From the IMG/VR virus record IMGVR_UViG_2675903352_000013, positions 1 to 25,016 of that record: a stretch of 25,016 nt of DNA; one strand, given 5' to 3'. A model generated the notes under the pieces. That model was given only the letters and a program-made list of their open reading frames with translations. It was not told the DNA's origin and ran no database searches. Within the stretch, counting starts at the first letter, position 1; every line of letters begins with the position of its first letter. This DNA is from a virus (lineage: Duplodnaviria; Heunggongvirae; Uroviricota; Caudoviricetes). Shown piece after piece: positions 286-23,464 of this stretch. The translations under genes were made by a program, and so were the position numbers.

Positions 286-1672
286 TGATTCCCATCAGCG
301 TTACGCCCTGATTTTTTAATTCATCGATCACTTCCTCTGGACGGGAATCCTGATCGATAAATTTCAACGCCTGCAACACCCGAACCGCATCAATCTGACG
401 TATATCACCACCCTGACGCAATGACTGAACAGCCAGCGCGGAGGATGAGTCAAACACCTGGGCAGATACATCCAGCTCAGTGCGCACATCCACATTGCCG
501 CCACAACTCTCTCCGATCCATTCCGCCATTATCTGGAGAATATTATCGAGGGCATCTTCGAGGGAGTTCGCCATTGTATAAAGCGGCGAGTTTTCCTGCA
601 TCCGTTCTTCATTGGTCTGATCCACAGATTTAGTGGATGTATTTTCAGCCCGAAGAAGTTTAGCGCCGGCATGACGCATCTGATTTTCCAGTTTCTCCAG
701 AGATATTTCGCCAGACTCTATCGCGGCACCGCTATGCTCAACATATTCAAGGCCATTTTTTGCCCTGTCATCAAAAATCGTCGCGGTCGATGCTCCTACC
801 GTCAGTTCTTCGTTCCTGTCCAGTCCGTAAGCCACCAGCAATGGAACCCGAGCAACATGCAGAATATTGTCCTGCTCGCTCTGGCTTTGCCAGTGCTTGA
901 TATTCAGCAAGCCAAGATTAAGCAATGGCGGTGTACCGCGCATAAACCCGATTTTCTTCGTGTAAAGCGTTACCAAGGGAATATCATCACGGCTGGTTTC
1001 CCATGACTCGTGAAGCGTCCAGACAGATTCACCATTAGTACCTTCGCTGCGTCGATAAATTTCAACGCGACGGGACATGATATGGCGGATCTGCTCCACC
1101 TTCTTCTGCCCGAAATCATCACCATCGATAATGATGACTTCTTTTATACGCAAATCTGTGAGAACAACTTTTCCTTTTTCAACTTTCGATTTCCACCCAA
1201 TAACCTGACGGGGATTCAGCATCGTAACGTATGGGCGACTACCAACCGCATTTTCATCAGCTTTTGTCCGAATCCCTTTCATATCTGTTCGAGGATAATC
1301 CACCAGCGCATGCGCCACGCCATACTGAAGCGCTAGACAGAAAAATTGCTGCGCCCATACATCCAGTCGACTCCCCTCCATGTCGATATTTTCTGCATAT
1401 TCCCTGATTTTTTCCGGCGTCTCTTCACTCAGCACTGTCGGCTCTGCAAATATGCGCCCAATATTTTGCTTAATACTTTCTTCATACACAGGAAGTAGCG
1501 TAGCCACAGACAAGCGTTTTTTATATGTATCTTCATCTTCATTAGGCCATTTAGGGAGATAATTTTTCCCCTGCCTGCGCATTTCAAGCGTGCCACCCAT
1601 CAGTGCGTCGTTAATATCCCACGCCTCCAGCATATCGTTATAGTCGAGGTTGGGTGTTGATATATCAGCCAT
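266..1672 (-). CDS. Phage portal protein
   Basis: 468-aa ORF with ATG at 1672..1670, starting 2 nt after the TerL stop (TAA 1677..1675). Size and position directly downstream of TerL are typical of portal proteins; no specific motif recognised. Confidence 0.6.
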   Translation of the reverse strand: MADISTPNLDYNDMLEAWDINDALMGGTLEMRRQGKNYLPKWPNEDEDTYKKRLSVATLLPVYEESIKQNIGRIFAEPTVLSEETPEKIREYAENIDMEGSRLDVWAQQFFCLALQYGVAHALVDYPRTDMKGIRTKADENAVGSRPYVTMLNPRQVIGWKSKVEKGKVVLTDLRIKEVIIIDGDDFGQKKVEQIRHIMSRRVEIYRRSEGTNGESVWTLHESWETSRDDIPLVTLYTKKIGFMRGTPPLLNLGLLNIKHWQSQSEQDNILHVARVPLLVAYGLDRNEELTVGASTATIFDDRAKNGLEYVEHSGAAIESGEISLEKLENQMRHAGAKLLRAENTSTKSVDQTNEERMQENSPLYTMANSLEDALDNILQIMAEWIGESCGGNVDVRTELDVSAQVFDSSSALAVQSLRQGGDIRQIDAVRVLQALKFIDQDSRPEEVIDELKNQGVTLMGINDANSE

Positions 1673-1674
1673 AA

Positions 1675-3993
1675 TTAAATCCGAAGTGATGTAACTCTTC
1701 CGGTCGGTTTGACAATAGGGAATTGCTTAACAATAAAATAACCTCCGGCATCATTCGGGTGATCGTTGCCAGATTTTTTATCAGGCTCACCCTTATCATC
1801 CCAGACCTGTTGCTCCAGAGATTCGGCATATACCGGACAACGCTTCACATTAACTTTATAGCGACGCTCACCATTGGCATTGCAGAACATTGCATTCATT
1901 GAGTTAACGCGATCTTTTACTGGCGGATTCGAACTGTTTACAACAACGTTAAAACCAGCCTGTTTAAGCTGAGCAATATCCGTCGCACTTGCGTTATTTG
2001 ATTTTCTGGAATCCCCGGATGCATCAGGATAAATATAAATTTCCCTTACTTTCCGATAATCATTCCCGTCATATAACCAGAAGCGCTCTTTAATAATACG
2101 GATCATATCTGGTGTATCGTAAGCGTTAATGATTTCAGTTACTGCGCATGGAAGCCCAAAACGTAACACATGAACGACTCCAGCCATTTTTCCGACGTTA
2201 AAATCCATCCCGATATATATCGGCTCACCTGGCTGTTCCTCTTCTTCGCAATTATTCAGTTTTCGGTCAAACTGATGGTAAACAGTACCACTTGTCAGGT
2301 TAGTAAACTGTCCTCGAAGATAGGCTTTAATCAGCTCTGGAGGATATGACTCAAGGAGCGAGGGAATGTAATCTGCTGGCAAATTCTTTTCATTATCGAA
2401 AGTAGATGCCTGCACCAGACCATACAGTGAGGCCAGCTCTGTTTTTTCACGTACGGCTTTAACAAACTGCTCGTAGACAAATTTGAATCCTTCCGGCGTG
2501 GTTGTAACGTCAATACCGTTACGAAGTCCATCAACCTTATAACGCATACGCGCAATTATCTTGCGCCACGCTGTTCTGGCTTTTTCCTTCGGCAAAATGT
2601 CCAGTTCATCCACCAGCGCATTACCAATTTTGAAACCGACGATCGTTTGCGGCTTCTCCATCGTTCTGCAGATAGTGGTTCCACGATACTGACGTCCGTA
2701 ATAAAAATGAACTTCTTTATTTCCCTCGTTAATTTTTACATTTAGCCCCCAGTCGGCAGCAACTTCTTCAACTGTAGGATAAAAAATATCGCGAATTTGT
2801 GGATATGTAGGCGCAAAATATCCCTGATTTATACCCGGATGCTCCCAAATCCCCTTACATATGCCACCACATCCAACCCATGTTTTACCGCTATTGTGAT
2901 GAATCGTCCCATCAGCAGTTACGTAGCAGTTATTATCCAATACCTGGAGGTCATAATATGGCTCGGCCTTCTGCAACAGTGTTACACTCAATATGTTGCA
3001 GGTTTCGATTAAGGAGTTTGGTTTTGACGCCTCTTGACCGTTTAATTTGTGATTTAGCACATCCAGAACGTACCGTTTCAGAAGTTGCTTCTCTGGCAGG
3101 TTGTGACCGCAGTCATGTTTATCGTTGCATATCTCGTTATGGGTTAACGCTGAAACAACACCAGAAGCCTGTCCCTCGAGAAAGTGCGAAGGACAGAATC
3201 CTCGCTCTTGCTGATGGTCACCGTACGTCGGCAGAGATCGCGGCGGAAGTTGGTTGCACAGAAAAGCACGTTCAAAATATTCTCCGAATTCACAACGCCA
3301 ACCGGCTACCCTGTGGCGCCAGAAAGGGTGAGTTGAACCCCAGCTTTCGTGGTGGTCGAATTGTTGATCTGGATGGATATGCCGTTGTTCCAGCGCCTGC
3401 TGACCATCCATATATGCGCAGAACAGGCATGATGTTTGAACATCGTTTGATCGCTGAAAAGAAGCTGGGGCGTTATCTGCTGCCATCAGAAGTTGTTGAC
3501 CATATAGACGGGCTTCATCTGCATAACACCCCAAGTAATCTGCGAGTTTTTGATTCAAACGTGGATCACCTGCGTGCAACGATTTCGGGACGGCGGCCAA
3601 ACTGGTCAGAAGAAGGTTTTGCGAAGATGCAAATACCTTCACCGATTCGTCCAGACTATCCACAGATCGATAGCTACCGTCAGCGCAAAAAACGCGGTGA
3701 TGTCCGCTTGCTACAAATTCTCCTCGCTGCGTCACTACTCGGTATAGATTCGACACACCTTTTGGGTACGCACCACCACTTAGCGAAAGCTCAAATCGAT
3801 TATTCTCATCCGACCAAGATAAAACGCGCATTGGTCGAGTTATTTCCTGAATGGGTAGAATCCCATTCTCTGTAACCACAGGCGTACTTCCCCTCAGGCA
3901 ACCAAAACCAGCAACATAGGCTTTAAATTTATGAGGCATAGAAAGAAATCGCGCCTGAGGCACATTAAGCGTCGGAGAGATCATCTTCATCAC
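1675..3993 (-). CDS. Terminase large subunit (TerL) carrying an in-frame intein within the Walker A P-loop
   Basis: Continuous 772-aa ORF. N-extein ends KAYVAGFG and C-extein begins SGKTWVGCGG, so removing residues 32..367 restores a canonical P-loop AGFGSGKT. Downstream motifs: Walker B-like NALVDELD, and nuclease-domain acidic motifs IYIGMDFNVGK and YPDASGDS. Start overlaps the putative terS 3' end by 29 nt. Confidence 0.8.
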   Translation of the reverse strand: MMKMISPTLNVPQARFLSMPHKFKAYVAGFGCLRGSTPVVTENGILPIQEITRPMRVLSWSDENNRFELSLSGGAYPKGVSNLYRVVTQRGEFVASGHHRVFCADGSYRSVDSLDESVKVFASSQNLLLTSLAAVPKSLHAGDPRLNQKLADYLGCYADEARLYGQQLLMAADNAPASFQRSNDVQTSCLFCAYMDGQQALEQRHIHPDQQFDHHESWGSTHPFWRHRVAGWRCEFGEYFERAFLCNQLPPRSLPTYGDHQQERGFCPSHFLEGQASGVVSALTHNEICNDKHDCGHNLPEKQLLKRYVLDVLNHKLNGQEASKPNSLIETCNILSVTLLQKAEPYYDLQVLDNNCYVTADGTIHHNSGKTWVGCGGICKGIWEHPGINQGYFAPTYPQIRDIFYPTVEEVAADWGLNVKINEGNKEVHFYYGRQYRGTTICRTMEKPQTIVGFKIGNALVDELDILPKEKARTAWRKIIARMRYKVDGLRNGIDVTTTPEGFKFVYEQFVKAVREKTELASLYGLVQASTFDNEKNLPADYIPSLLESYPPELIKAYLRGQFTNLTSGTVYHQFDRKLNNCEEEEQPGEPIYIGMDFNVGKMAGVVHVLRFGLPCAVTEIINAYDTPDMIRIIKERFWLYDGNDYRKVREIYIYPDASGDSRKSNNASATDIAQLKQAGFNVVVNSSNPPVKDRVNSMNAMFCNANGERRYKVNVKRCPVYAESLEQQVWDDKGEPDKKSGNDHPNDAGGYFIVKQFPIVKPTGRVTSLRI
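2893..3900 (-). other. Intein (Hint domain) inserted in the TerL P-loop, about 336 aa
   Basis: Read directly from the minus-strand translation: block A-like CLRGSTPVVTENGILPIQEI starting with Cys (codon 3900..3898); block B-like GEFVASGHHRVF; block F/G-like YYDLQVLDNNCYVTADGTIHHN followed by +1 Ser (codon 2892..2890). No LAGLIDADG or HNH motif in this frame between the blocks. Confidence 0.7.
2958..3875 (+). CDS. HNH endonuclease (HNH_3-like motif) with two N-terminal HTH-like segments, encoded antisense within the TerL intein
   Basis: Plus-strand ORF (track 2880..3875). ATG at 2958 is preceded by GGAGG at 2946..2950 with a 7-nt spacer. Motif DGYAVVPAPADHPYMRRTGMMFEHRLIAEKKLGRYLLPSEVVDHIDGLHLHNTPSNLRVFDSNVDHL matches the classic phage HNH homing-endonuclease pattern. 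Two HTH-like repeats upstream (RTVSEVASLAGCDRSHVYRCISRYGL and RTSAEIAAEVGCTEKHVQNILRIHNA). The C-terminal ~100 aa may be non-functional read-through constrained by the opposite-strand frame. Confidence 0.6.
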   Translation: MARPSATVLHSICCRFRLRSLVLTPLDRLICDLAHPERTVSEVASLAGCDRSHVYRCISRYGLTLKQHQKPVPRESAKDRILALADGHRTSAEIAAEVGCTEKHVQNILRIHNANRLPCGARKGELNPSFRGGRIVDLDGYAVVPAPADHPYMRRTGMMFEHRLIAEKKLGRYLLPSEVVDHIDGLHLHNTPSNLRVFDSNVDHLRATISGRRPNWSEEGFAKMQIPSPIRPDYPQIDSYRQRKKRGDVRLLQILLAASLLGIDSTHLLGTHHHLAKAQIDYSHPTKIKRALVELFPEWVESHSL

Positions 3994-23088: not shown

Positions 23089-23283
23089 ATGCGATATGAA
23101 AAAGTTAAGCCATGTCCGTTTTGTGGTTGTCCATCTGTAACAGTGAAAGCCATTTCAGGGTATTACCGGGCAAAATGCAACGGCTGCGAATCCCGAACTG
23201 GCTATGGTGGAAGTGAGAAAGAAGCCCTCGAAAGATGGAATAAACGAACCGCTGAAAATATTAATGGAGGCATCTATGTATAA
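23089..23283 (+). CDS. ralR: Restriction alleviation protein RalR (Lar)
   Basis: 64-aa product from the second ATG: MRYEKVKPCPFCGCPSVTVKAISGYYRAKCNGCESRTGYGGSEKEALERWNKRT..., matching Rac Lar as recalled. Confidence 0.8.
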   Translation: MRYEKVKPCPFCGCPSVTVKAISGYYRAKCNGCESRTGYGGSEKEALERWNKRTAENINGGIYV

Positions 23284-23464
23284 AATTACCGCCACAATTG
23301 AAAAGGAAGGTGGTACTCCTACTAACTGGACAAGATATTCAAAATCTAAACTAACGAAATCAGAATGCGAAAAAATGCTCTCAGGGAAAAAAGAAGCAGG
23401 CGTTTCCAGAGAGCAAAAAGTAAAACTGATGAATTTTAATTGCGAGAAACTTCAGTCCTGGTAA
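23276..23464 (+). CDS. ydaC: YdaC-like small protein
   Basis: ATG at 23276 preceded by GGAGG at a 6-nt spacer; overlaps the ralR stop; product MYKITATIEKEGGTPTNWTRYSKSKLTKSECEKMLSGKKEAG... Confidence 0.6.
   Translation: MYKITATIEKEGGTPTNWTRYSKSKLTKSECEKMLSGKKEAGVSREQKVKLMNFNCEKLQSW

Follow-up and report, generated by a model that had tools for sequence, protein, structure and literature searches.

The window analysed here, a 25,016-nucleotide stretch from a tailed virus (Caudoviricetes; IMG/VR record IMGVR_UViG_2675903352_000013, positions 1 to 25,016), carries on its minus strand a gene for the large terminase subunit (TerL) in which the codons for the Walker A loop (P-loop) are separated by an insert of 1008 bp. 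This insert is very probably a composite mobile element, made up of a splicing TerL intein and of a gene for an HNH homing endonuclease that runs antisense to it on the same 1008 bp. An earlier interpretation (hereafter, the sequence-only reading) had already proposed the intein, although it overlooked the gene on the opposite strand and took the element for an oddity of one enterobacterial prophage, whereas it belongs to a large family present in many phages and prophages.

It is proposed that the minus strand would be translated as a 769-aa TerL precursor, in which the 92 N-terminal and 38 C-terminal residues of the insert, joined by an unstructured read-through loop of about 200 residues, would form a Hint domain. 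This domain would excise the whole insert by class-1 splicing (using Cys1, the block B His, the terminal His-Asn and Ser+1), rejoining AGFG to SGKT, restoring the Walker A loop and allowing packaging to work. From the plus strand, a 305-aa HNH protein would be translated separately from its own GGAGG-ATG and would act as a homing endonuclease. It would nick or cut TerL alleles that lack the intein, in or close to the DNA coding for the P-loop, and repair by recombination with the occupied allele would carry over the intein together with the nuclease gene.

The insert in the Walker A loop of TerL

The minus-strand open reading frame (ORF) of TerL is uninterrupted from 1675 to 3993, as the sequence-only reading had stated. 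It is open from a GTG at 3993, which would give 772 aa; taking into account that intein-free homologues begin with MISPTLNV, the ATG at 3984 is the likely start. The parts of the gene are the following:

1675..3984, minus strand: TerL precursor gene, 769 aa from ATG 3984, with Terminase_6N and Terminase_6C in the C-extein
3901..3984, minus strand: N-extein, 28 aa, ending in AYVAGFG, the first half of the Walker A loop
2893..3900, minus strand: putative intein, 336 aa, from Cys1 to His335-Asn336, followed by Ser+1
3625..3900, minus strand: predicted N-terminal splicing domain of the intein, aa 1-92, with blocks A and B and GHH at 66-68; beta-rich, with a predicted local distance difference test score (pLDDT) of 76-88
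3007..3624, minus strand: intein linker, aa 93-298; antisense read-through of the HNH gene, stop-free, poorly conserved and with no predicted fold
2893..3006, minus strand: predicted C-terminal splicing domain of the intein, aa 299-336, with blocks F and G: YYDLQVLDNNCYVTADGTIHHN
1675..2892, minus strand: C-extein, 405 aa plus stop, beginning with SGKTW, the second half of the Walker A loop

The insert comprises exactly 1008 nt (336 codons) and lies in frame between AGFG and SGKT, bearing out the claim that the P-loop is split by some 336 residues. After AYVAGFG, the TerL frame continues with CLRGSTPVVTENGILPIQEI...GEFVASGHHRVF...YYDLQVLDNNCYVTADGTIHHN and then SGKTW; in its longer form, the start of the insert directly after AYVAGFG is CLRGSTPVVTENG. 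The first residue matched by Pfam Terminase_6N is aa 368, directly behind the insert. BLAST comparison with the intein-free allele of an E. coli prophage (L002, NZ_AP022245.1) gives a net insertion of 1008 nt at 2893..3900. The empty allele, whose DNA at the insertion point is GCTGGTTTTGGC/TCGGGTAAAACATGG (here and below, a slash marks the insertion point) within a stretch of the type ...GCTGGTTTTGGCTCGGGTAAAACATGG..., encodes AGFGSGKTW contiguously, and the window TerL is about 98% identical to the L002 protein after in-silico excision, so that the predicted restoration of AGFGSGKT holds.

Among the complete E. coli genomes carrying this TerL, the P-loop is contiguous in 785 of 786, and the insert is found only in MEI003, a result that holds even at blastn sensitivity. 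The insert is also absent from all 10 matching GenBank phage records. A closer intein-free partner allele was sought in E. coli and none was found, the best one being 93.8% identical.

The residues expected of a class 1 intein are all present in the window copy, namely C1, GHH at 66-68, D317, H335-N336 and S+1. The initial Cys, the strings resembling blocks A, B, F and G and the following Ser pointed out in the sequence-only reading are thus all there. Over 10 diverse relatives, T6, H67, H68, D317, H334, H335 and N336 show no variation, and C1 hardly any. An AlphaFold2 model of the intein predicts beta structure for aa 1-92 and 299-336, with block-mean pLDDT values of 72-89, and values of only 25-58 for aa 93-298. 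When this model was compared with the Protein Data Bank (PDB) using Foldseek, the top 50 matches were all inteins or other Hint-fold domains (hedgehog and bacterial intein-like domains), including Ssp DnaB (the best, E=5e-6), Spl DnaX, Npu DnaB, Ssp DnaE (TM 0.75) and Mtu RecA. In addition, a profile search against PDB sequences retrieved the Spl DnaX mini-intein at E=0.039, and PF14890 is matched at E<=0.01 by 8 of the 10 relatives (best 1.6e-7).

The precision of the in-frame insertion, the conservation of nucleophiles and block residues and the predicted Hint fold support the view that the insert, located in the Walker A loop of TerL, is an intein of class-1 type. An in-frame endonuclease in the middle of the intein was considered and ruled out, as this region has no Pfam match, has pLDDT values of 25-58 and shows a protein identity far below that of the opposite frame. 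The earlier statement that no endonuclease is recognisable on the same strand is thus correct; the nuclease that seemed to be missing is encoded inside the intein by a separate HNH gene on the opposite strand.

A mini-intein of about 136 aa belonging to the same intein family occurs in a 564-aa TerL from a metagenome (P0126), at a .../SGKS site and without the nuclease region. This protein delimits the splicing core as the first ~99 and the last ~36 residues.

The antisense HNH gene and coding on two strands

On the plus strand, the longest ORF (2880..3875, 331 codons) runs antisense through the whole insert. Given that the homologues have 275-305 aa, the start at 2880 is probably not used, the ATG at 2958 being the putative start. 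The following features can be distinguished:

2958..3875, plus strand: putative HNH homing-endonuclease gene, 305 aa plus stop, wholly inside the intein and antisense to it
2946..2950, plus strand: Shine-Dalgarno sequence GGAGG, 7 nt before ATG 2958 and within the intein block F codons of the other strand
3030..3290, plus strand: two helix-turn-helix (HTH) modules, aa 25-61 and 78-111 of the HNH protein
3381..3584, plus strand: HNH beta-beta-alpha nuclease core, aa 142-209
3609..3866, plus strand: predicted C-terminal helical domain of the HNH protein, aa 218-303, block-mean pLDDT ~78-96; antisense to the N-terminal splicing domain of the intein

A ribosome-binding site of the GGAG type is found 6-9 nt upstream of the ATG in 7 of 7 loci inspected. 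The plus-strand ORF matches Pfam HNH_3 and HTH_29, both above their gathering scores, and PHROG 10730 ('HNH endonuclease') at E=4.8e-48. The protein contains the beta-beta-alpha-metal motif with its conserved His, Asn and His/Asn, and the invariant residues of the nuclease core are D181, H182, D184, H189, N190, N194, N201 and H204. By its sequence, it is assigned to the HNH_3 or I-HmuI-like type with two HTH modules. Its AlphaFold2 model, built on 74 sequences, has a mean pLDDT of 86 and predicts two HTH modules, a beta-beta-alpha core and a helical C-terminal domain. A search of PDB sequences with a profile of the HNH family gave HTH-type matches only, and no HNH structure. We infer the endonuclease activity of the protein, its cleavage target site and the route by which the antisense gene is transcribed.

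The selection acting on each frame was analysed by counting substitutions by position modulo 3 between the window and the Yersinia, Pseudomonas and Acinetobacter copies. In the phase that relates the two strands, which is identical in 7 of 7 loci tested, codon position 1 faces position 1, and position 3 of each strand faces position 2 of the other. Three patterns were observed:

Exteins and the first and last few dozen intein codons: substitutions mostly at minus-strand position 3; the minus frame is selected
2998-3540, middle of the insert: 0.50-0.59 at plus-strand position 3 versus 0.11-0.28 at plus-strand position 2; only the HNH frame is selected
3628-3852, HNH C-terminal domain facing the intein N-domain: 0.08-0.20 in all three phases; both frames are constrained

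Over the central part of the insert, selection acts on the plus frame, and the minus frame is only kept stop-free. Protein identities agree with this distribution, since translation of the linker DNA in the HNH frame gives identities of 83/73/58%, versus 57/40/36% in the intein frame, and the DNA of the N-domain is conserved both ways (90/76/60% as intein, 79/70/60% as HNH protein). The dual-coding stretch extends over about 250 nt (3625-3872), in which the last ~85 HNH codons share their DNA with the intein N-domain; at the other end, the HNH ORF overlaps the intein C-domain by 49 nt.

The maintenance of an open minus frame was evaluated by permuting the synonymous codons of the HNH gene while keeping its protein sequence and codon usage, with 20,000 shuffles per locus. 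On average, 5-12 stops arose in the TerL frame, where the real sequences have 0, and stop-free shuffles appeared in 0/20,000 cases in six loci and in 11/20,000 in the seventh. Conversely, synonymous shuffles of the intein N-domain left the plus frame open in only 0.3-5.7% of cases per locus. Lying antisense to the intein, the nuclease gene is selected for codons that place no stops in the TerL frame.

With somewhat less than even confidence, a de novo origin is proposed for the C-terminal domain of the HNH protein (aa 218-303), which would have been overprinted in antisense on an intein N-domain that already existed, in such a way that one 250-nt stretch would code for two independently folded functional domains. 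This origin fits, although unproven, because the domain is family-specific and because the C-terminus of the related protein L028 is different. Searched alone against 1.84 billion representatives, the domain was found in 40 clusters only, all of them of proteins with <=303 aa that end in this domain. If overprinting is the correct explanation, the nuclease and the intein would be locked into one inseparable mobile unit, and a beta-rich Hint half would be opposed to an alpha-helical and presumably DNA-binding domain.

The protein L028 is encoded in a Calditrichia metagenome-assembled genome (MAG; JANQRS010000032.1, 2749-3705, plus strand) and has two HTH-like modules and an HNH core. Neither an intein nor an open frame antisense to it accompanies this gene, no terminase ORF can be recognised within ~1.5 kb, and L028 is a candidate for the ancestral free-standing form of the nuclease.

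Distribution, mobility and alternative explanations

Homologues of the HNH protein form at least 380 clusters in the protein database and are present in at least 355 viral contigs. Stop codons in the TerL frame of insert-carrying homologues, which could have refuted the sequence-only reading, were looked for, and the open minus frame spans the entire HNH match in 95 of the 96 loci fetched, about 88 of which show the arrangement G/C...HN/[STC]GK[TS]. In all loci examined the HNH gene lies inside the intein boundaries. The hosts include Enterobacter, Yersinia, Pseudomonas aeruginosa and Acinetobacter, together with MAGs labelled as many other phyla, and the cultured carriers are seven Pectobacterium phages (the Ymer group), Dickeya phage Setonix and Pseudoalteromonas phage PHS3. 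Since these cultured phages are infective, their TerL must be rescued, and it is their identical architecture that gives the best indirect support to the protein splicing of TerL, which we infer for the window copy.

The family is distributed sporadically and incongruently with its host genes. The element also occurs in TerL families without BLASTP-detectable similarity to the window TerL (e.g., at MGPVG/SGKS), where the HNH protein is ~50% and the intein N-domain 50-60% identical to those of the window. In two enterobacterial prophages (L012 and L043), the intein N-domain is 98% identical to that of the window and the extein 79%, and in L033 and L034 these values are 91% and 88%, respectively. 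Such incongruence between intein and extein similarities indicates mobility and, together with the occupancy of 1 in 786 E. coli genomes and the existence of decayed forms (L098 and P0126), is what a homing cycle predicts.

In L098 (IMGVR_UViG_3300034072_000605, 1658-3655), with an AGFG/.../SGKTW site and an open TerL frame, the intein has only 224 aa and the antisense ORF is truncated to an open frame of 170 aa without HTH modules, which looks like a decaying endonuclease. Variants at the +1 position and in the P-loop, noted among L081, L021, L027 and L108, are HHN/STKT in L081 (1303-3657), HHN/CGKS in L021 and HHN/TGKS in L027 and in phage Ymer, showing that the family uses Ser, Thr or Cys as the C-extein nucleophile.

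The codons at the junctions differ between alleles. The empty E. coli allele reads GGC/TCG and the occupied one GGT/TGC...AAT/AGC, both flanking codons being synonymously altered. The Ser+1 codon is AGY in every occupied AGFG/SGKTW allele and TCG in the empty one (L002 2713-2722), and the Gly codon that precedes the junction is GGT in the window and GGC in L002 (window 2890-2895 and 3898-3903). These differences may be a mark of co-conversion or may confer target-site immunity.

Some observations weigh against the proposed interpretation. The block B position is occupied by Ser or Ala instead of the Thr usual in inteins, and the AlphaFold model of the intein was built on a shallow alignment of only 7 sequences. 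The comparison with Hint and intein profiles suggested in the sequence-only reading was just weakly positive for the window copy, with 17 bits for PF14890 (gathering score 35.8) and 13 bits for TIGR01445 (24.5), both below threshold, its relatives scoring better, as indicated above. A single-sequence phmmer search of the insert against PDB sequences found no intein and only chance LAGLIDADG matches at E ~2, for which reason profile and fold searches were needed. Regarding the expression of the plus-strand gene, a scan for sigma-70 promoters between 2500 and 4300 on both strands found none; a TATTAT seen by eye at 2931-2936 has no acceptable -35 element. The comparator loci used in the shuffles are mutually related and their results are not independent, and the low divergence of 3628-3852 could be due in part to shared recent ancestry and not to dual constraint. 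Finally, 17 nucleotide differences from the empty allele are concentrated in the 150 nt that adjoin the C-extein junction (window 2743-2892), with 2-5 in each of the three preceding bins; a co-conversion tract beside the junction is merely suggestive, the divergence being mosaic elsewhere.

Among other explanations, the intein could splice while the HNH protein of the window copy is inactive, the element being a vertically inherited relic that is becoming a mini-intein. To this we assign a minor, but not negligible, probability. It would agree with the 6% divergence from the nearest E. coli alleles that lack the intein, none of them a near-identical partner, with the negative promoter scan, with the stages of decay seen in the family (the truncated HNH of L098 and the mini-intein of P0126) and with the similar divergence of intein and extein when the window is compared with the Yersinia, Pseudomonas and Acinetobacter loci. 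However, the ORF is intact, every family-invariant residue is kept, the GGAGG ribosome-binding site is strong and purifying selection on the plus frame is evident; furthermore, the intein of L012 and L043 is more conserved than the extein, which points to a recent transfer among enterobacterial prophages. It is extremely unlikely that TerL is dead, split by the insertion of a free-standing HNH gene, even though the Prokaryotic Genome Annotation Pipeline (PGAP) depicts the MEI003 locus in this way (RefSeq NZ_CP071263.1; L001 3001-5288), with a TerL pseudogene 'missing N-terminus' and an 'HNH endonuclease' gene, and many gene callers give a truncated TerL plus an HNH gene. An open frame across the insert in practically all loci is essentially never reproduced by synonymous shuffles, the ends of the insert have a predicted Hint fold with conserved splicing residues, the N-extein and the intein termini are under minus-frame selection, and plaque-forming phages have the same arrangement.

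The removal of the insert at the RNA level, as a group I or group II intron with an antisense endonuclease gene, has a practically negligible probability. HNH enzymes of the I-HmuI type are typically intron-encoded and introns can hold antisense endonuclease genes; nevertheless, the insert has exactly 336 codons, is in frame, keeps an open frame under selection and ends in the two parts of a predicted Hint domain. RNA splicing was also rejected by an Rfam scan of the TerL region, which gave no intron or other RNA family at gathering score. As for the possibility that the HNH protein is a packaging accessory that helps the terminase to cut DNA, as in HK97-like cos phages, and not a homing enzyme, it is supported by the position of the gene between the TerS gene and the body of TerL and by the fact that HNH genes beside terminase genes are common and can be functionally linked to terminase (PMC3592412). 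Yet, this role is very improbable, as 785 of the 786 E. coli prophages whose TerL is 94% identical do without the gene, which is, consequently, dispensable for packaging. Moreover, the enzyme is of the HNH_3/I-HmuI type with HTH modules and encoded on the opposite strand, and its gene is always within the intein boundaries and travels with the intein between unrelated TerL families. Taken together, the composite element formed by a splicing intein and an antisense homing-endonuclease gene is the interpretation preferred here.

Regarding the surroundings of the element, the stop of the gene for the small terminase subunit (TerS) is at 3965, and its end overlaps the TerL start (ATG 3984) by ~20 nt (window 3965-3993), likewise in intein-free relatives. 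A terminator-like hairpin is present on the minus strand at 3964-3950, within the N-extein. The MEI003 copy (NZ_CP071263.1, ~3187-3361) contains an in-frame 87-bp tandem duplication in the C-terminal half of TerL that the window (~1861-1948) does not have. Farther away, at 23282-23460 (minus strand), the window matches the Rfam family of the small RNA RalA with 209 bits (gathering score 170). RalA, the antitoxin of the RalR toxin of Rac-type prophages, makes plausible the Rac-like prophage context that had been suggested for this DNA.

Annotation, significance and comparison with known systems

The mis-annotation of these loci is systematic. It affects L001, L004, L008, L010 and L109, with other gene callers producing the truncated TerL and the HNH gene mentioned above; the annotation of phage Ymer gives the name 'hypothetical protein' to the complete precursor and leaves out the HNH gene. 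Proteins in the intein frame have been called only 6 times in a database of 5.8 billion proteins, versus 380 HNH clusters. Calls of TerL as a pseudogene or as a truncated gene and the missed nuclease consequently affect the estimates of phage completeness and terminase-based classification.

If the proposed interpretation is correct, this unrecognised family is perhaps among the commoner intein types in phage terminases. HNH would be the third nuclease class among the rare inteins with a separate antisense homing endonuclease, and such elements would not be confined to actinobacteriophages or cyanobacteria. The family would offer a natural system for the study of overprinting and of the limits of two-strand coding, in which a stretch selected in one frame and only kept stop-free in the other adjoins another constrained in both frames, clear evidence of antisense dual coding. 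It would also support a model in which free-standing nuclease genes invade mini-inteins and P-loop-coding DNA, a possible target of the HNH enzyme, lets an intein hop between unrelated ATPases. Transcription of the nuclease gene would converge on that of the late operon, which might set the timing of homing or tune the expression of TerL. From the applied point of view, a compact splicing core (~130 aa) that tolerates an unstructured insert of 200 residues could be of use.

TerL inteins located in the P-loop are known in mycobacteriophages (Kelley et al. 2016, PMC5050341) and in Terminase_6 prophages (Novikova et al. 2016, PMC4760082). They share with the element described here the class 1 type, the Walker A loop of an ATPase as insertion site, the need for splicing in packaging and a sporadic distribution. 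However, the mycobacteriophage inteins TerL1-b and TerL1-c have an in-frame endonuclease domain, and their P-loop sites a and b are at or next to GK/T (PMC5050341), whereas here the site is three residues upstream (G/SGKT), TerL belongs to the Terminase_6 type and the endonuclease gene runs antisense.

With respect to the nuclease, I-HmuI (Bacillus phage SPO1, PDB 1u3e) is an HNH nicking homing endonuclease located in a group I intron; unlike it, the HNH protein of the window has N-terminal HTH modules and a family-specific C-terminal domain. The packaging HNH proteins similar to HK97 gp74 are small and encoded by adjacent genes on the same strand, in contrast to the antisense, intein-nested gene of the window, whose product has 305 aa and HTH modules. 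Closer in its arrangement is the 'hidden' out-of-frame HNH described in a DNA methylase of mycobacteriophage ShiLan (Arsenault et al. 2025, PMC11855218), which likewise hides in a second reading frame of an insertion that leaves the interrupted phage gene in frame. To this HNH, the core of the window nuclease is 44% identical over aa 118-199. Nevertheless, the ShiLan HNH shares the strand of its host gene, read in a different frame, within an insertion without detectable splicing domain, whereas that of the window is antisense and lies in an intein with a predicted Hint fold.

In the literature searched, there is no report of an antisense HNH in an intein or of this family of proteobacteria and their phages, and the paper on the Ymer genus makes no mention of an intein. 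The closest precedents are the antisense LAGLIDADG endonuclease ORFs described in the inteins of Synechocystis DnaX and of a Chloroflexus SpoVR-like protein (Gorbalenya 1998; Gogarten 2002) and the actinobacteriophage inteins with antisense LAGLIDADG or VSR-like homing endonucleases (Gosselin, Arsenault & Gogarten, bioRxiv 10.1101/2025.01.02.630785). This last survey lists HNH enzymes in frame only and places the secondary ORFs typically outside the splicing domain. These inteins and that of the window have in common a separate ORF opposite the intein centre, an unstructured in-frame centre, the presence of TerL among the hosts and a distribution suggesting that both parts move as one unit. 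Unlike them, the element described here combines an I-HmuI-like HNH_3 enzyme with two HTH modules, instead of a LAGLIDADG or VSR-like one, with an ORF that overlaps the splicing domains, both frames being constrained in the overlap, and resides at G/SGK[TS] of the Walker A loop in prophages and phages of Proteobacteria type. Thus, what is new with respect to the known inteins with antisense homing endonucleases is the nuclease class, the exact site (G/SGKT) and the extensive two-strand coding of two domains predicted to fold.

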